A stretch of DNA of 64,000 bases from Nitrospirota bacterium (GCA_021814475.1 JAKAIE010000004.1:3283-67282); one strand, 5' to 3'; shown: positions 1 to 6,038, counted from the stretch's first letter. Numbers and translations: made by a program. The notes: generated from the letters alone by a model not told the origin.

Positions 1-2118
1 TCGGCCAAGTCGGATATGGGGACACTGAAGATCTATGAAGATTCGGTGCGCGATGACCTGCTCACCCCGGTGGAAGTCTCGGCGGAAATCATCAGGGAGC
101 TTATCCGGGCTGCGGAAAAGGAGACAGGGGTATCACCCAAAAAGGCACGGGTGGTCATCACCGTACCGGCATCGTTTACCCATAACCAGAGGCAGGACAC
201 CTTGGATGCCGCGAGATTCGCGGGCTTGACCATAGCTGACGGGGATCTACTCGACGAACCGGTCGCAGCCTTTATTCACACAGCCTGTCATCAGAAGCTC
301 GATGCGCAGCTGGATATGACGAGTCCGAAGAGAATCCTGATCTTCGACCTCGGAGCCGGTACATGTGATGTTTCGGTCTTTGAGGCGTCGTATGCTGCCG
401 GATTCGCCTCCTCTGGTATAGGTCTCGATATCGTAAACAGGTCGATCAGCAACTATGAAAAGCTGGGGGGTGATAACGTCGACCTCCATATTGTCGAGTT
501 GGCCATCCTTCCCCATTTCTGCGAAAAGAACAGGATTGATTTTGATGAGCTGCCGGAGAGAGTCAAGCGGGAGATCAGGTTCAGGCTGAAACTGAAGGCC
601 CGGCAGGTGAAGGAGGAGATCTGTCGCCAGATACGCGACGGCCGGGGCATGACGGGGATCAAACAGCCGTGGGCGATCGATTCTTTTCCTATTTCAGAGC
701 AGAATACCAGGACAGCCAAGGTGACAGGTACGACCAAACTGGAGACATTCCTGGAACTCATGCATCCGTTTATCGCAGATGACCTTGAGAGTTCCTATAC
801 CATCGCGGACGACTACTGCACATATTCATTCTTCGGACCAGTGATAGATTCACTCAGGAAGGCCGGTCTCGGGTTGGGTGACGTTGACGGCTTTATCTTT
901 AATGGCGGTAGTTGCCACAACCCCATAATCCGCAGGGCCTTCAAAGACCACGGCGGCCTTGCAGGGGCAACTTTCTTTGAAACCCCGGACCTGGACCTCT
1001 CGGTTTCGAAGGGTGCAGCTATCCACTGCTACTATCTTCATCGTAACAGCAGGCCGCTGGTGACCCCCATTCTGAACAGCGATATCGGTATCTACACGCA
1101 TGGGCTGAAAAAGGAGGTGTTGATTCCGGCAGGAACCTCGTTGCCGTTCCCCGAAGGCGGAGATTACAGGGTGAAGAATGATTTCTGTCTGCCGAGGGCA
1201 AAAATGAACAGCGTGGGGATCTCCGTATTTTCCGGGGATGGAAGAGTGGTCAGCAATCTTAAGCTGCCGCTGCCTGAGGGGGTGAAGAAAGGAGACCCGG
1301 TGAGCATCGGTGTCCGTATTGACAGCAACAAGGTGATGTCCTTCACGGCGTTTATGTCCGACACCCCCGATGTCAGAATAGAGGCCGAGCTGAGCAATCC
1401 ATGGACACATACGGTGAACACCCCTGAGGACATGGCTGCCAACGAGCTCTGGGAGAAGGTCGCGAGCACGAGAAGAGAGAGGCAGAATGTGCCGGCCGGC
1501 ACCATGATCGACCTTGCCAACCGGGAACGCCTCCGCAACAACGTGGATGCAGCATTAGAGATCATGCAGCGACTGGAAGACAGGGGAACCAGCACTCCAG
1601 GTTTTCACAATATCCTCGCCCTCTGCTATGCGAGGAGAGGGCAGCGGGACAAGGCCCTTGAACATTTCAGGAAGGCAGCTGAAATGGCCCCTGACAATGC
1701 CACTCTGGTTTCGAACTATGGCAGTGAACTTGTCAATAATGACAGGGTGGACGAGGGGATTTCGGTCCTGAGACGCGCTGTAGACATTGGTTCTGGAGAT
1801 TATTTTCCCCATTACTGGCTGGGTTATGCGTACAGAGGCAAAGGGGACGAGGAATCGGCGGGAAAGGAGTTCCTGCGTGCCCGAAAGATACTGGTTTCAC
1901 TCTGCTGCCAGCATCCGGACAATGAGGTCTATACCGACTTTCTTCAGGACGTCGAACTTGCCATCGGAAACTATGCGGAATCCGATGCAGCCAGGAGGAG
2001 ACTCCAGGCTATCAGGAATTCCAAGATCCTGGGTGGGGATCAGGAAGACCTTCTGGCCGGGCCTGAGTCCGGCATATGGACAGAGGACGAGATCTATGAA
2101 AACAAAGAGCGGGAATAA
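1..2118 (+). CDS. Hsp70-family (DnaK-like) ATPase with C-terminal TPR repeats; 5' end cut by window edge
   Basis: Frame is open from nt 1 (listed ORF 16..2118). Hsp70/actin-fold motifs: VVITVPASFTHNQRQDTLDAARFAGL, ILIFDLGAGTCDVSVFE, FIFNGGSCHNPIIRRAF. A DnaK-SBD-beta-like segment follows (DIGIYTHG..LIPAGTSLPF..ISVFSGDG..VSIGVRIDSNKVMSFTAF). TPR-like repeats (ALCYARRGQRDKALEHFRKAAEMAPDN; YWLGYAYRGKGDEESAGKEF) then replace the helical lid. Confidence 0.8.
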   Translation, partial: SAKSDMGTLKIYEDSVRDDLLTPVEVSAEIIRELIRAAEKETGVSPKKARVVITVPASFTHNQRQDTLDAARFAGLTIADGDLLDEPVAAFIHTACHQKLDAQLDMTSPKRILIFDLGAGTCDVSVFEASYAAGFASSGIGLDIVNRSISNYEKLGGDNVDLHIVELAILPHFCEKNRIDFDELPERVKREIRFRLKLKARQVKEEICRQIRDGRGMTGIKQPWAIDSFPISEQNTRTAKVTGTTKLETFLELMHPFIADDLESSYTIADDYCTYSFFGPVIDSLRKAGLGLGDVDGFIFNGGSCHNPIIRRAFKDHGGLAGATFFETPDLDLSVSKGAAIHCYYLHRNSRPLVTPILNSDIGIYTHGLKKEVLIPAGTSLPFPEGGDYRVKNDFCLPRAKMNSVGISVFSGDGRVVSNLKLPLPEGVKKGDPVSIGVRIDSNKVMSFTAFMSDTPDVRIEAELSNPWTHTVNTPEDMAANELWEKVASTRRERQNVPAGTMIDLANRERLRNNVDAALEIMQRLEDRGTSTPGFHNILALCYARRGQRDKALEHFRKAAEMAPDNATLVSNYGSELVNNDRVDEGISVLRRAVDIGSGDYFPHYWLGYAYRGKGDEESAGKEFLRARKILVSLCCQHPDNEVYTDFLQDVELAIGNYAESDAARRRLQAIRNSKILGGDQEDLLAGPESGIWTEDEIYENKERE

Positions 2119-2656
2119 GAAGCCGAAGGGGACCCGTCCAAGAAACGTCTGGAATTCGGTGCGTAAGCTTCAGAACTACCTGAAAAAGGCTGATATTGAG
2201 GCCATGGTCTTTATGGATTCTCTCCAGGAGCTGAGGGATGCGGTGATGCTCGATGTACGCGCCGAAATCGTCAGGGGTTTATGCAACACGGTCCACGGAG
2301 ACCTCCTTAACGGCCTCCTGGAATACAGGAGGAAGATCGAAAATGGCGCAGACTCGGGGGACATCGGGGAAAACGCGGTTATGATCGGTCTACTCGATAC
2401 CCTGATGCAAAAGCTTTGCGTAAGGCCTTTCAGAACATCCGGTGAGCGGTTCTTTGTCAGAAGGGACGCGGCCACCGATTATGAGTTCGAAGAATATCCG
2501 GAGGCGATAGCAGACGATAAGAATACGAAGTTCGAGGTCGAGGTACTTCGGCCAGGGTGGAAGATTGATGAGAGGATTATCATCAAACCAAAAGTGATCC
2601 AGGTATCCTGTGCAGAAGAAGACATGTTTGAACGCTCAAGGCCACACACGTATTAA
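2096..2656 (+). CDS. GrpE-like nucleotide-exchange factor (186 aa), overlapping the Hsp70-like gene
   Basis: ATG at 2096 lies inside listed ORF 1787..2656 and overlaps the upstream stop by 23 nt. Basic N-terminus and helical middle. The C-terminal pattern GERFFVRRDAATDYEFEE...KFEVEVLRPGWKIDERIIIKPKVIQVS resembles the GrpE beta-domain (G-x-F-D-P ... V..GY...R-v-l-R-p-A-x-V-x-V). Assigned by eye. Confidence 0.55.
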   Translation: MKTKSGNKKPKGTRPRNVWNSVRKLQNYLKKADIEAMVFMDSLQELRDAVMLDVRAEIVRGLCNTVHGDLLNGLLEYRRKIENGADSGDIGENAVMIGLLDTLMQKLCVRPFRTSGERFFVRRDAATDYEFEEYPEAIADDKNTKFEVEVLRPGWKIDERIIIKPKVIQVSCAEEDMFERSRPHTY

Positions 2657-2775
2657 CAAGACGGCCTGAAATACTGCAGGGGATAACTGAAAGTGCCCCA
2701 CTCTGGATACGGCCTTGTCCCTCCCTTATATGAGTCTTTATTGTATTTGTGGTGGCGGTGATGTTATATTCGCAC

Positions 2776-2984
2776 ATGGATATCACTCATTTGGCCCTGA
2801 GGTTTTATAGACGAGACTTCTAACTGCTTGTCTGGCCTTCATATTGCCATAACTCCTCTTCCTGGGCCAGAGGCATGCGGAGATGCGTATTATGGGCTGG
2901 CAGCTCTGTCCTGAAATTATCGCTTTTGGGGCTGTTCAAATTATCGCCTACGCCATTGAAGTTGAAATAACAGATTATCAATGA
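2776..2984 (+). pseudogene. Decayed higB (RelE/HigB-family killer) remnant upstream of higA
   Basis: The frame ending at TGA 2982-2984, 12 nt before the higA ATG, reads ..GQRHAEMRIMGWQLCPEIIAFGAVQIIAYAIEVEITDYQ*. This follows the HigB C-terminal pattern (G-x-R-x-G-x-W-S-x-R-x-x-x-x-W-R-x-x-F ... V-x-x-x-D-Y-H). That frame is closed by TAA at 2850. An upstream piece (MDITHLALRFYRRDF*, from 2776) is in another frame. No intact ORF of about 90 aa exists. Confidence 0.4.
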
Positions 2985-2996
2985 AAGGAGCCGATT

Positions 2997-3305
2997 ATGC
3001 GGACATTAAAGAACATACATCCTGGTGAAGTTCTCAAGGAAGAGTTCCTGGAACCGATGGGTCTCTCTGTATACCGTCTTTCAAAAGAGACAGGTCTTTT
3101 GCAGACCAGGTTGAGCCAGATTATCAAAGGCGAAAGAGGTATCTCTGCCGAGACCGCGCTAAAACTTGGCAAGTTTTTCGGTGTTCCTGCTGAATTCTGG
3201 ATGAATCTGCAGACGCTCTATGACATTGAAGAGGCTCAGAAAAGATACAAGAAGGATATCGAATCCATTCATACCTTCCGCGATTCCAGGCTGGCGGTAA
3301 TATAG
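2997..3305 (+). CDS. higA: HigA-family antitoxin (XRE helix-turn-helix)
   Basis: 102 aa. IHPGEVLKEEFLEPMGLSVYRLSKETGLLQTRLSQIIKGERGISAETALKLGKFFGVPAEFWMNLQTLYD matches the HigA/VapI antidote pattern (hPGe.L.eefL.p.g.s...lA...g......s.ii.g.r.it...Al.L...fg.s.efW..LQ..yd). Confidence 0.85.
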   Translation: MRTLKNIHPGEVLKEEFLEPMGLSVYRLSKETGLLQTRLSQIIKGERGISAETALKLGKFFGVPAEFWMNLQTLYDIEEAQKRYKKDIESIHTFRDSRLAVI

Positions 3306-3379
3306 AGGTAAAGAGATTTCGGCGTTCCGGACTTTTCCTGTATGACTGATTGATGACAAATTAGCATTGAGCCGATGTA

Positions 3380-4453
3380 ATGGCATTACCGACTGCTTAT
3401 AAATGGAATTTTGCTCCACGCTTCCGCAGGAATGCCTTTGGCTGGCGTTCTCAGCCGGCACTGACACGGATAAAGGAGGCTGTGGCGGAGATAAAGAAGA
3501 TGGCACGGAAGGAGTCCGTTCTGGCTGCCGAAGGCGCCGTGCTGTTTCTGGAGAAGGTATCCCCTGCATTAGCCCACGTCGATAGCTCCTCGGGTGCGAT
3601 AGGAACGGCGGTGAACAATGCCATCGATATACTTGCGGCCATCATAGCCATAGCACCGGCAGACAATTCCCTTCGGGACAAATGGATGGATCGTCTCTGG
3701 CAAGCGGTTGAGGACGACGATATCCCCTATATCGAGCTGTTGCCGGAATATTGGGGAGATCTCTGCGCCACCCCTGAGCGAGCCTCTCGCTGGGCAGACT
3801 CGTTTATCGATGGGGTAAAAATGGCGTGGAAGAATTCTTCTTCCGGGCATTACGTTTATTTCAAGGGTACAGTTGCGTGTTTGAGCGCTCTGATCAAGGC
3901 TGGACGGAATGAGGAAGTCCTCGCCCTGCTTGAGCTGTCGCCATACAAATACTGGCATTACAGTCAATGGGGAGTGAAGGCCCTGAGCGCAATGGGCAAG
4001 AAGGCCGAAGCGATCCGCTACGCTGAGAGCAATCGAGGAATCAACGATCCCGTGGACGCAATTGCAGAGGCATGCGAGGAGATTTTGCTTTCAAGCGGCA
4101 TGAGCGAGGAAGCCTATGCCCGCTATGCAAACCTCGCCAATCGAGGAACTTCTCACTTGGCCACGTTCCGGTCTATTGCAAAGAAATATCCCCATAAGAC
4201 CGCTGCCGAGGTACTGCACGATCTGGTCCGAAGCACACCCGGAGAAGAAGGTAAATGGTTTGCCTCTGCGAAATCAGTGGGTCTGTATGATGAGGCAATA
4301 GCACTGGCAAACAAGACGCCTTGTGATCCGAGGACATTGACGCGGGCAGCCAAAGAAGCTTTGCCCGAGCATCCTGCGTTTGCTGTTGAAGCAGGGATGG
4401 CGGCGCTCAGATGGCTGAGCGAGGGGTATTGTCGCCGTCTCAGGCGATTTTAA
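3380..4453 (+). CDS. Hypothetical alpha-helical repeat protein (357 aa)
   Basis: Long ORF with coding-like composition. A/L/E-rich amphipathic segments, no TM segment and no catalytic motif recognised. The 3' end overlaps the convergent antitoxin gene by 14 nt. Confidence 0.6.
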   Translation: MALPTAYKWNFAPRFRRNAFGWRSQPALTRIKEAVAEIKKMARKESVLAAEGAVLFLEKVSPALAHVDSSSGAIGTAVNNAIDILAAIIAIAPADNSLRDKWMDRLWQAVEDDDIPYIELLPEYWGDLCATPERASRWADSFIDGVKMAWKNSSSGHYVYFKGTVACLSALIKAGRNEEVLALLELSPYKYWHYSQWGVKALSAMGKKAEAIRYAESNRGINDPVDAIAEACEEILLSSGMSEEAYARYANLANRGTSHLATFRSIAKKYPHKTAAEVLHDLVRSTPGEEGKWFASAKSVGLYDEAIALANKTPCDPRTLTRAAKEALPEHPAFAVEAGMAALRWLSEGYCRRLRRF

Positions 4454-4715
4454 CTTCAAGCCTCTTTCCAAGGGCATGGGCCACCTTCTCCAGGGTCGAG
4501 AGCTTGATATCCTCTGCATGGTTTTCGATCCGTGATATGGCGGTCTTCTTAGTCTTCAGCCTCTGGGCGAGTTCTTCCTGTGTCAGTCCTGCCGTCTCCC
4601 GGGCCTGCTTCAGTACCACACCTATTTTGAACTGCTCGTATCCCTCTTCATAGCCTTCGGCAAAGGCCCTGTCCCTCTTCTTTCTTTCTACAACGTATTT
4701 TTTCAGGTCGCTCAT
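4440..4715 (-). CDS. XRE-family HTH antitoxin (91 aa)
   Basis: Start MSDLKKYV at 4715 preceded by AAAGGAGG. HTH core LKQARETAGLTQEELAQRLKTKKTAISRIENHAEDIKLSTLEKVAHALG. The listed ORF start at 4766 has no RBS. Confidence 0.8.
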   Translation of the reverse strand: MSDLKKYVVERKKRDRAFAEGYEEGYEQFKIGVVLKQARETAGLTQEELAQRLKTKKTAISRIENHAEDIKLSTLEKVAHALGKRLEVKIA

Positions 4716-5067
4716 CTTTTGTCCTCCTTTGCAAATAGTCCTTCCTGTAATCCTCTGCCCGTTCAATCTCCCTCTGAGGGGTCTTTTGTGTTTTCTTGAT
4801 CAATCCGTGCGTCAAGACAACAACAGAATGACCGTCAAAAAAGCAGAATATCCGGTAAGCATTGGAGCCAAGCTGTATCCTGCATTCCCATATCTCCTCG
4901 GTGCTGACAAGCTTTTTGAAGTACGTCGACGGCACAACGTCAAGGTCTTCGATCAGGTTCAATACCCAGGTCACTTTCTGCGCCGCCTTACCGGACAGCG
5001 AATCAAGAAACTCCTGCACCGGGCATTTGCCGTCAGCAGTCCTGTAGAAGATTACTGTCTTACCCAC
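4648..5067 (-). CDS. Type II toxin, Gp49-like/HigB-RelE superfamily (139 aa)
   Basis: MGKTVIFYRTADGKCPVQEFLDSL...EIWECRIQLGSNAYRIFCFFDGHSVVVLTHGLIKKTQKTPQREIERAE is the typical Gp49/DUF891 toxin pattern. GTG start. Toxin-first order as in higBA. The last 68 nt overlap the antitoxin gene out of frame. Confidence 0.75.
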   Translation of the reverse strand: MGKTVIFYRTADGKCPVQEFLDSLSGKAAQKVTWVLNLIEDLDVVPSTYFKKLVSTEEIWECRIQLGSNAYRIFCFFDGHSVVVLTHGLIKKTQKTPQREIERAEDYRKDYLQRRTKDERPEKIRCRKKEEGQGLCRRL

Positions 5068-5073
5068 AGAAGT

Positions 5074-5102
5074 ATGTTAACGTCTACGTTAACTCTTGTC
5101 AA
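5074..5102 (-). promoter_or_regulatory. Putative sigma70 promoter of the toxin-antitoxin operon
   Basis: Minus strand: TTGACA (5102..5097), 17 nt spacer, TAACAT (5079..5074). The -10 ends only 6 nt before the GTG start, implying a leaderless or near-leaderless mRNA. Confidence 0.45.
5076..5093. promoter_or_regulatory. Perfect-arm inverted repeat GTTAACGT-ct-ACGTTAAC (candidate antitoxin operator)
   Basis: 8-bp arms are exact reverse complements and lie inside the promoter spacer/-10 region. Confidence 0.55.
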
Positions 5103-5119
5103 GCTGCCGGTATTTCCAG

Positions 5120-5138
5120 AACGTGAAGAAAACGTGAA
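5120..5138. repeat. Direct repeat AACGTGAA x2 at 11-bp spacing
   Basis: AACGTGAA at 5120..5127 and 5131..5138, just upstream of the TA -35. It shares the AACGT core with the inverted repeat. Confidence 0.5.
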
Positions 5139-5327
5139 AATAGACGGTCGAAAACGGTATAAATCGAGCGAGTTCTATAAAAAACTAAAGCAGCCTAACT
5201 CCCTGATAATCAAAATCAATTTCTGGTATTTTCAAGCACTTGCCAAGTCCCCTGATCCGCCCTTTCAAGTCTGTGTCACGTGAGTAGAATTCATATATAG
5301 GCTTGTCGTGGGGTTGGGGCATGCCTA

Positions 5328-5588
5328 TCAAGTATTGAGCCGAATTATTCTAATAACCCTTGCAAAATTATCGTCGGCTGCATCTTCAATAGGCGCAAAG
5401 AGGACCTGATCGCCAGTCTTCAGCTCAATTCGAACCCTGTTCAGTTCACGTGAGTCTATGCTGTATTCGGCTCCGTTGGCGAGAGACTTGATTTTACCTG
5501 TATTGGATTCGGGATCAAACTCGGTAATGACTCCCTCCTCTTTTTGATATATATCATACCACGCTTCTTCCCGCGCATCCATGCCCAT
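5328..5588 (-). CDS. Hypothetical small protein (86 aa), possibly OB/cold-shock-like
   Basis: ORF only. GVITEFDPESNTGKIKSLANGAEYSIDSRELN..LKTGDQVLFAP loosely follows the cold-shock-domain pattern. No clear RBS. Confidence 0.35.
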   Translation of the reverse strand: MGMDAREEAWYDIYQKEEGVITEFDPESNTGKIKSLANGAEYSIDSRELNRVRIELKTGDQVLFAPIEDAADDNFARVIRIIRLNT

Positions 5589-5660
5589 GGAGACTAGAGG
5601 AATATCTTTTTTGTTATTTTTTTTGTCATTTGCTAGAAACGGAAAACGAGTTGGAAGTCA

Positions 5661-5693
5661 CTGTCCTGCAACTGTCCTGTTAAGTGTCCTGTT
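5661..5693. repeat. Three phased copies of (C/G)TGTCCTG
   Basis: CTGTCCTG at 5661, CTGTCCTG at 5672 and GTGTCCTG at 5684, so the spacing is 11 and 12 bp. Confidence 0.7.
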
Positions 5694-5702
5694 GGAACAA
5701 GT

Positions 5703-5734
5703 GAGGCTGTCAGACTCACCTGTCTGACAGCCTC
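5703..5734. repeat. Perfect 13-bp-stem inverted repeat with 6-nt loop
   Basis: GAGGCTGTCAGAC (5703..5715), tcacct, GTCTGACAGCCTC (5722..5734). It lies 29 nt beyond the tRNA 3' end. No U-tract on either strand. Confidence 0.8.
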
Positions 5735-5763
5735 TAATCTATTGAAAATAAACGATAATTTCT

Positions 5764-5840
<77 letters not shown>

Positions 5841-5854
5841 TCAATGTAAAACCA

Positions 5855-5884
5855 ATAATAACCTATGTGACAGACTGTTGTCAA
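5855..5884 (-). promoter_or_regulatory. Putative sigma70 promoter for tRNA-fMet
   Basis: Minus strand: TTGACA (5884..5879), 18 nt spacer, TATTAT (5860..5855). The -10 ends 14 nt before the mature tRNA 5' end. Confidence 0.5.
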
Positions 5885-5905
5885 ATTACGTGAGAATTAC
5901 GTAAG
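5884..5905. repeat. Tandem 11-mer AATTACGTGAG / AATTACGTAAG
   Basis: Two adjacent copies with 1 mismatch, abutting the -35 of the tRNA promoter on its upstream side. Confidence 0.7.
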
Positions 5906-6038
5906 AATAACATGATACATCCATGAGAAAGCCAGCCATAAAGGCATGATTTGTATCGCCGAAGCCGGCCGCTGCCATGGCTGCGGGAGGCTTCTCCGCG
6001 CGGATTAAGACGCCGCGGCGCCTGTCCTGGGCCGCCGC

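Follow-up and report, generated by a model that had tools for sequence, protein, structure and literature searches.

Described Hsp70-based systems and the Nitrospirota pair

Hsp70-like ATPases have been noted computationally in a few conflict systems, and we know of none that has been shown to work or that comes with a dedicated exchange factor in a minimal two-gene cassette. Here we describe two overlapping genes at the start of a 64,000-nucleotide (nt) stretch of a Nitrospirota bacterium genome (GCA_021814475.1, JAKAIE010000004.1:3283-67282; this whole stretch is called the window). On the plus strand, the gene at 1..2118 encodes an Hsp70 that carries a TPR array (Hsp70-TPR) and the gene at 2096..2656 a GrpE-like protein of 186 amino acids (aa). 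The account that we favour, with moderate confidence, is that the pair forms a self-contained mobile two-gene module, an Hsp70 with its own GrpE-type exchange factor, which acts as an ATP-driven switch in defence or conflict and not in general folding. The reading of the two proteins as an Hsp70 plus its exchange factor is considerably firmer and seems to us quite probable, while a defence or conflict role of the pair is for us an even question. Full-text searches of a literature library returned no paper on an Hsp70-TPR/GrpE-like pair or on the related helicase-type cassette described below.

In function the closest described system is DnaK-GrpE. Like it, the window pair has adjacent genes, an ATPase domain with all catalytic motifs, a beta substrate-binding domain, and a partner with the domain order of GrpE and what may be its beta signature. 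Unlike it, the Hsp70-TPR protein is about 20-25% identical to DnaK, far below the cut-offs for DnaK and HscA orthologs, and TPR repeats with a tail bearing an acidic motif replace the helical lid. The partner escapes the GrpE hidden Markov model (HMM) and its N-terminus is basic, not acidic. The pair is also mobile and patchily distributed, lies in islands and has no linked J-protein, again unlike DnaK-GrpE.

In the Type III CoCoNuT systems, CnuD/CnuCD joins an Hsp70-like ATPase and substrate-binding unit to HEAT-like repeats. CnuD goes together with McrB/McrC-type GTPase systems and its Walker A-like motifs are reported to be degenerate; the CoCoNuT paper makes no mention of GrpE, DnaJ or nucleotide exchange (PMC11090510). 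CnuD resembles the Hsp70-TPR protein in that its Hsp70 ATPase and substrate-binding domains are followed by alpha-helical repeats and that it is encoded in defence loci (PMC11090510). It differs in that the ATPase motifs are invariant here and a GrpE-like gene is attached. The GAP1-N2 GTPase conflict systems, which were proposed computationally, likewise pair HSP70 with GrpE and have TPR or DnaJ modules in the same operons; they centre on a GTPase and an FNIII-repeat protein bearing a TPR/DnaJ fusion and are found for the most part in actinobacteria and firmicutes (Kaur et al. 2020, PMC7159879). In the pair described here, by contrast, it is the Hsp70 that bears the TPR array, and the host phyla are different ones. 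Neither the CnuD partners (McrB-type GTPase, McrC/DUF2357) nor those of the GAP1-N2 systems (GAP1-N2 GTPase, FNIII-repeat protein) were found in the annotated neighbourhoods of the pair (loci L001, L006 and L008-L011) or among the 25 commonest neighbour families.

The likeness to STAND/NLR-type NTPases with TPR sensors (e.g. Avs, bNACHT) may be taken as an analogy only. Both could be described as an NTPase switch with a C-terminal repeat sensor, preceded in some cases by an N-terminal effector (HEPN_Swt1-Hsp70 among the relatives of our protein) and located in defence islands, but the fold here is actin/Hsp70-like and not P-loop, and a dedicated exchange factor is encoded. The Menshen system was also considered as one with an Hsp70 and was set aside, as the Menshen paper never mentions Hsp70.

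The Hsp70-TPR protein and its GrpE-like partner

Plus-strand frame 1 is open from nt 1 of the window to a TAA at 2116-2118, giving 705 residues. An exact-sequence look-up of the 186-aa protein led to the same locus on longer assemblies (L001-L004), which gave the upstream DNA. The complete gene, at L001:5746-8139, encodes 797 aa; its 5' 276 nt lie outside the window, which starts at residue 93, and 1..2118 encodes residues 93-797. Pfam HSP70 (PF00012) matched the 705 window residues with E=2.8e-25 and the full-length protein with E=4e-26, at 89-92 bits against a gathering cut-off of 20.6. TPR_2 was found with E=6.3e-11 (42 bits, cut-off 27), and TPR_14, TPR_16, TPR_8 and TPR_1 were likewise above their Pfam cut-offs.

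An AlphaFold2 model of the Hsp70-TPR protein, built from an alignment of 41 homologs, had a mean confidence (pLDDT) of 88.6 and a predicted TM-score (pTM) of 0.87. It delimits an Hsp70 ATPase domain at residues 1-441, of which residues 93-441 fall in the window (1..1047, plus strand). A DnaK-like beta substrate-binding domain, all-beta in the model, follows at 1084..1389 (residues 454-555). At 1423..2031 (residues 567-769) lies a TPR/helical repeat array, which is recognised by the Pfam TPR families and modelled as eleven paired helices; these take the place of the alpha-helical lid of Hsp70, which is absent. The protein ends in an acidic C-terminal tail at 2032..2115, disordered in the model and carrying the clade-specific motif LLAGPESGIWTEDEIYE. 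All these segments are on the plus strand. The top ranks in Foldseek were full-length DnaK, BiP, Hsc70 and Ssb (E down to 5e-28), and the target-normalised TM-score was 0.77-0.78 against the ATPase plus beta substrate-binding constructs 7kzu and 5o4p, as a superposition of the whole construct and not of single domains. These TM-scores and the full-length Hsp70 top matches indicate that the DnaK-like beta-sandwich is real and that the lid has been exchanged for TPR repeats. As modelled, then, the large protein is a genuine Hsp70 in which the lid alone is exchanged. It scored 45-95 bits against the NCBIfam DnaK and HscA equivalog models, whose cut-offs are 620-1019, and is therefore not a DnaK or HscA ortholog.

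Conservation was read from the alignment of the 41 homologs, which are 22-67% identical to the window protein. Invariant in all of them are G11, T12, K95 (encoded by the third codon of the window), the PASF..R156 block, D177-E178-P179, the residues D208, G210, G212, T213 and D215 of a D208-x-G-x-G-T213-x-D215 motif, and G394, while D9 and G395 are nearly invariant. By our reading of the motifs, the conserved positions appear to correspond to D8, K70, E171, D194 and T199 of DnaK, K95 being the probable counterpart of K70 and the D177-E178-P179 block that of E171. Since the phosphate-binding and catalytic positions are all kept, the ATPase should be active.

The GrpE-like gene begins with the ATG at 2096 and overlaps the Hsp70-TPR gene by 23 nt. 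A Shine-Dalgarno-like GAGGA (2083..2087, plus strand), as read from the sequence, lies 8 nt upstream of this start and inside the Hsp70-TPR gene, and the downstream gene is probably translationally coupled to the upstream one. Scans for promoters and terminators around the pair gave matches at chance level only.

The AlphaFold2 model of the 186-aa protein (12 sequences, pLDDT 80) has helices at residues 16-63, 70-82 and 90-107 and strands within 109-169. The order of its parts, a basic disordered N-terminus, a 48-residue helix, two shorter helices and a small beta domain, is the domain order of GrpE. When the model was compared with the PDB by Foldseek, the ten best matches were all GrpE (E=5e-4 to 0.12, about 160 aligned columns), from E. 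coli, Thermus, Geobacillus and human GrpEL1, and the next-best fold had E=0.7. Sequence comparison gave a fainter picture. Searches of the PDB with phmmer and hmmsearch, queried with the single sequence, two family profiles and the distant family member P0024, returned no GrpE. Alignment by hhalign with a thin GrpE profile of 3 sequences was collinear, with E=0.046 for a 12-sequence family and E=0.0013 for a 26-sequence family. A homolog search meant to enlarge this profile yielded nothing but sequences of Enterobacteria and Geobacillus, which were left out. In a column-shuffle control the C-terminal beta domain reached z=5.7, and 0 of 60 shuffles attained its score. The register, taken from the same thin 3-sequence profile, places G154-W155-K156-I...R-I-I-I-K164-P165-K-V167 on the GrpE pattern G-[YF]-x-L...R-x-[LI]-R-P-A-x-V. 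The beta domain is the part of GrpE that contacts DnaK (e.g. PDB 1DKG). P0024 scored 19.4 bits (E=9e-4) with Pfam GrpE, under the cut-off, and GrpE was the top-scoring Pfam family over all 26 members. We conclude that the 186-aa protein is, to judge from its model, a very divergent GrpE-fold protein, whose resemblance to GrpE is clear by fold and weak by sequence. Its fold and gene order suggest nucleotide-exchange activity.

The GrpE-like family is small, with 11 relatives among 5.8 billion clustered proteins and 20 among 1.84 billion representatives in an exhaustive profile search; none of these 20 was shown to be a canonical GrpE. Its members carry 10-14 Lys/Arg in the first 30 residues (10 in the window protein), followed by an invariant P-x-x-V-W-N-S-x-R-K-L block. 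Some are longer, at 340-445 aa (L038:6566-7903; P0020, P0024, P0028), and in these the GrpE-like C-terminal domain is preceded by a further domain, some 200 aa or more in length, that has no annotation. No significant viral structural match to the GrpE-like protein was found, and in phage genomes the Hsp70-TPR protein gave generic DnaK-like matches only.

The original prediction, made from the window's sequence alone, had described a non-canonical Hsp70-TPR fusion with nucleotide-binding motifs, a beta-sandwich, TPR repeats in place of the lid and an acidic tail. Pfam, AlphaFold2 and Foldseek bear out this description, the HSP70 and TPR-clan HMMs both exceed their cut-offs for the large protein, and the equivalog scores agree with its non-canonical nature. 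The 186-aa open reading frame (ORF) and its 23-nt overlap were also placed correctly. The GrpE identity proposed for it stood by structure and fell by HMM, PF01025 giving no match, and for the suggested GrpE beta-domain pattern of its C-terminal half there is the aligned register with its z of 5.7, a tentative match in view of the thin profile.

Conservation of the pair, its relatives and its genomic setting

ORFs were called, crudely, in 94 fetched loci and searched with family HMMs, which yielded 82 non-redundant Hsp70-TPR genes with downstream sequence. The downstream gene was GrpE-like in 22 cases, mostly with an overlap at the stop codon or a distance of up to about 20 nt from it, a UvrD-like superfamily 1 (SF1) helicase, typically of about 390-460 aa and often with a 4-nt overlap, in 41, and something else in the other 19. 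The pair occurs in Nitrospirota, Verrucomicrobiota, Planctomycetota, Acidobacteriota and Kiritimatiellia. At L001, L006 and L008-L011 the GrpE-like gene always follows an Hsp70-TPR gene (793-801 aa), with flanks that are unrelated between loci, and an all-against-all BLAST of the neighbours left the pair as the only constant genes. The distance matrices of the two proteins are strongly correlated (Mantel r=0.966, p=2e-4, 21 pairs); across the same pairs the GrpE-like protein diverges faster, with a mean p-distance of 0.74 against 0.61 for Hsp70-TPR. The two genes thus travel and diverge together across five phyla.

The GrpE-partnered pair belongs, as one branch, to a large family of uncharacterised proteins of about 800 aa. 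The clustered database contains at least 315 such Hsp70-TPR proteins, and species-representative genomes of many phyla, including one archaeon, gave at least 514 matches. The sister branch has a homologous Hsp70-TPR protein of about 800 aa (25-30% identical), a partner gene that usually overlaps the stop codon by 4 nt, and mobile or defence-like settings, but the partner is a helicase and not GrpE-like, and in the tail the acidic AGPxSG motif is missing and G-x-LP is often the terminal motif. This branch matches no PADLOC system model and appears uncharacterised. Its cassette, an Hsp70-TPR gene followed by an SF1/UvrD-like helicase gene and a gene for an unknown protein, was seen at L012, L013, L014, L053, L095:6065-11496 and L096:6692-12092. 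It occurs on two plasmids of cultured bacteria (Antarctobacter pSMS3-3, with flanking IS6 and IS256, and Persicobacter pPP6), where the gene for the Hsp70 is accompanied by one for an 'AAA family ATPase' (387-388 aa) and one for a hypothetical protein (456-596 aa). This third protein had no Pfam or PADLOC match. Fusions also occur in the family. An HEPN_Swt1-Hsp70 protein of 994 aa (P0130, L014:1973-4957) unites effector, NTPase and repeat region in one chain, as in NLR-type proteins, and three relatives of 976-1095 aa (P0072, P0073, P0083) are fused to AAA+ (PF00004). In addition, a 375-aa all-TPR protein is encoded at L020:5752-6879 and ends 6 nt before the Hsp70-TPR gene.

The tails of the two branches differ. 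GrpE-partnered Hsp70-TPR proteins end in L-[IVL]-A-G-P-x-S-G-I-(W) followed by acidic residues (LLAGPESGIWTEDEIYENKERE in the window protein). Of 22 GrpE-partnered proteins 18 have the core A[GS]xxSG, whereas none of 41 with a helicase partner has it (Fisher p=2.8e-12), and the last 25 residues have a net charge of -2.9 in the former against +1.0 in the latter (Mann-Whitney p=1.7e-6), which often show a G-x-L-P terminal motif instead. The acidic tail and the basic N-terminus of the partner may be complementary in charge, and we count this in favour of the two proteins working together as an Hsp70 switch.

A census of 128 neighbour proteins from the 22 GrpE-partnered loci places the module in variable, defence-rich neighbourhoods. 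WYL regulators occur 5 times, DrmD-type SNF2 helicases 4-5 times (PADLOC E=0, some with NOV_C or PLD nuclease domains), ARPP-1 3 times, twice directly upstream, CHAT twice and a phage integrase once; DrmA models match 4 of the 128 proteins. At L006 a Lamassu LmuA (Cap4 nuclease) with LmuB and a WYL regulator lie upstream of the pair and a metallophosphatase and a patatin gene downstream. L008 has CHAT-TPR, ARPP-1, a 1015-aa UvrD-type protein, and conjugation and primase genes, and L010 has WYL and ARPP-1. Two local observations may be added. The ARPP-1 gene (PF20208) lies immediately upstream of the Hsp70-TPR gene or overlaps it at L008:6619-7593, L010:3028-3984 and L019:1864-2922, and ARPP-1 or WYL could be an optional regulatory or accessory component. 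At L006:10581-12712, a Nitrospirae locus, the GrpE-like gene is followed on the same strand by an overlapping gene for a 202-aa unknown protein, the metallophosphatase gene and a gene for a 240-aa unknown protein, possibly a lineage-specific extension of the operon.

In the window's own genome, the DNA recovered upstream of the pair (L001:26-5468) holds a DUF1016/YhcG nuclease gene (PADLOC candidate PDC-S02), a gene for a Type IIG restriction-modification protein of 1128 aa (PADLOC E=0), a truncated DUF1016 copy, two tiny ORFs and a 180-aa DprA-like gene with a match to PADLOC PsyrA (E=1.3e-20). The bracketing of the Type IIG gene by an intact and a truncated DUF1016/YhcG (PDC-S02) gene suggests rearrangement within the island. 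Downstream, the pair is separated by a HigA-like helix-turn-helix (HTH) gene, an orphan ORF of 357 aa, and genes for a Gp49(HigB)-type toxin and an HTH antitoxin from a tRNA-Met gene (CAT anticodon, 5764..5840, minus strand, found by ARAGORN), whose 3' end faces the islet. The G+C content is 0.45-0.55 over positions 1-6000 and mostly 0.55-0.61 from 7000 on; the housekeeping genes rpmI-rplT-pheST lie in the higher-G+C part after the tRNA. Because of its low G+C content and the flanking tRNA, the region looks like an acquired, tRNA-flanked islet, of which the tRNA-Met is likely the right-hand boundary and whose left end lies beyond the recovered DNA. The window itself contains no canonical dnaK-grpE-dnaJ.

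Several features of the islet are recorded here in their own right. The HigA-type HTH gene at 2997-3305 is solitary, the 340-nt stretch before it having no toxin ORF, and it may be an orphan antitoxin or regulator or the remains of a decayed toxin-antitoxin locus. At 4440-5067, on the minus strand, the Gp49/HigB-type toxin and HTH_3 antitoxin ORFs share 68-119 nt, according to which start is taken. There is also a match between the toxin and the C-terminal portion of the PADLOC NsnC (Menshen) model (E=4.6e-11); the toxin ORF is missing from the genes called on L001-L004. The 357-aa ORF at 3380-4453 (plus strand) has no Pfam, NCBIfam or PADLOC match and is kept in same-species contigs only; it was considered as a third component and rejected, a 357-aa protein in L008 proving unrelated.

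What the original prediction had said of the setting was largely upheld. It had placed the pair in an accessory islet with toxin-antitoxin-type loci and a tRNA, as the low G+C content, the tRNA-Met and the restriction-modification and toxin-antitoxin genes confirm; the conserved neighbour relationship that it had named as a check was found, usually with overlapping genes, unrelated flanks and co-divergence, and so were known defence genes of the Lamassu, DISARM and WYL kinds beside relatives of the pair. Recovering the DNA upstream of nt 1 answered its other question in part: J-domain, STAND, TIR and protease genes are absent from it, and the DUF1016 nuclease and Type IIG genes are present but are not conserved with the pair. 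The possible third gene, a J-protein or an effector, was not borne out.

A chaperone cycle as a possible switch, and its alternatives

If the pair works as we propose, the GrpE-like protein, presumably a dimer, would bind the ATPase domain and expel ADP, which would reset the Hsp70-TPR protein without the GrpE of the host. Because no J-protein is encoded nearby, the trigger of hydrolysis would have to be sought in the client itself, in a J-protein of the host, or in the TPR array or tail. The beta domain and TPR array could together take hold of a polypeptide, foreign or stress-exposed. For the acidic tail (LxAGPxSGIW-EDE), one possible role is that of a built-in pseudo-substrate or TPR ligand that holds the protein off; alternatively, the GrpE-like partner might dock there with its very basic N-terminus. 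As output, the bound target could be sequestered or remodelled, or a neighbouring nucleic-acid enzyme could be controlled; with neither an effector nor a J-protein encoded with the pair, this step is speculative.

A number of results weigh against such a module. The 186-aa protein has no Pfam, NCBIfam or PADLOC match at all, the PF01025 cut-off of 25.8 bits not being reached, and its helical half shows no sequence signal (z=1.0 against column shuffles). The Foldseek TM-scores of its model against GrpE are low, 0.25-0.40, because the long helix stands at another angle in the monomer model. It is from fold and gene order that binding and exchange would follow. The link between tail motif and partner is confounded by shared ancestry, as the GrpE-partnered proteins probably form one clade, and thus holds at the level of clades and not of independent events. 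With an HMM built from 4 sequences, no J-domain was found at E<=1 in the window or the 94 loci, and the all-against-all neighbour BLAST revealed no effector or other third gene conserved beside the pair. PADLOC-DB v2 gave no significant match, the Hsp70-TPR protein being marginal to PDC-M61B and PDC-S28 (E about 0.004-0.007) and the GrpE-like protein matching nothing. The defence association was read from some 22 loci, in which ORFs were called crudely, and has no background control, and at L009 the pair lies among housekeeping-type genes.

The last point would also suit a specialised chaperone pair with a dedicated client outside defence, belonging to the host or to a mobile element, which the pair would fold, assemble or hold inactive; the islands would then be a by-product of horizontal transfer. 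HscA/HscB, which serve IscU as a dedicated client, offer a model for such a role, and TPR modules are classical chaperone-adaptor domains. The full Hsp70 machinery, with intact ATPase motifs and beta substrate-binding domain, and the absence of an effector gene linked to the pair are both what this explanation would expect. We nevertheless consider it unlikely. No conserved client gene adjoins the pair and the flanks differ at every locus, the distribution is patchy across phyla, the 21 distinct pair loci being a small number for a family of more than 500 members, known defence genes are found repeatedly in the vicinity, and the sister branches are HEPN-fused or helicase-coupled.

A second explanation concerns the partner. 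The missing GrpE HMM match and the silent helical half would be unsurprising if the 186-aa protein were no exchange factor but a coiled-coil adaptor or nucleic-acid-binding protein, merely GrpE-like in fold and occupying the partner slot that holds a DNA/RNA helicase in related operons. The 10-14 Lys/Arg at the N-terminus across the family and the extra domain of about 200 aa in some relatives point the same way. Against this, all ten best PDB folds are GrpE, from four organisms and clearly set apart from whatever ranks next, the model shows all GrpE domains in their order, the gene lies beside an Hsp70 gene, and the sequence similarity sits in the beta domain, the very part that contacts DnaK in GrpE. 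An adaptor of this kind therefore seems to us improbable. Very improbable is that the pair is not autonomous but an accessory or regulatory part of the system beside it, which would be Type IIG restriction-modification in the window's genome and DISARM or Lamassu at other loci. In favour of this, the restriction-modification gene is found directly upstream of the pair, and 5 loci have a DrmD-type SNF2 helicase at a distance of up to 4 kb, in one case with its end 76 nt upstream. Against it, the neighbouring system, its distance and its orientation vary by locus, several loci have none of these systems, and the only constant genes are the two.

We therefore return to the Hsp70 with its own exchange factor as a mobile switch, and it is the apparent repurposing of an Hsp70/GrpE pair as a mobile cassette that we rate as new. 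By analogy, the sister branches, with a helicase in the partner slot or an HEPN or AAA+ fusion, could be seen as giving the 'effector - NTPase - repeat sensor' layout of NLR/STAND immunity. A bolder proposal, which we regard as doubtful but possible, is that the two genes form an autonomous immune module against phages or plasmids, whose Hsp70 cycle, served by its own exchange factor, would be both sensor and effector, and that together with the helicase-, HEPN- and AAA+-linked branches the pair would make up a large unrecognised Hsp70-based immune superfamily. One form that it could take is a decoy chaperone, which would trap proteins of invaders that have evolved to recruit the DnaK/GrpE of the host. 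If true, the superfamily would share the logic of NLR/STAND immunity with a different NTPase fold.

The analysis exposes at least 500 Hsp70-TPR proteins of about 800 aa that lie outside current defence catalogues, and a GrpE-fold family that is missed by Pfam. Should the pair turn out to be an ordinary dedicated chaperone, it would still represent a new co-chaperone architecture, with a TPR array in cis and cycling that is J-independent or depends on a J-protein of the host. The module is tractable, having two genes, no obvious effector, an intact catalytic site and a partner-specific tail motif that can be mutated, and it offers an experimental route to the question of whether a chaperone cycle can act as an immune switch.

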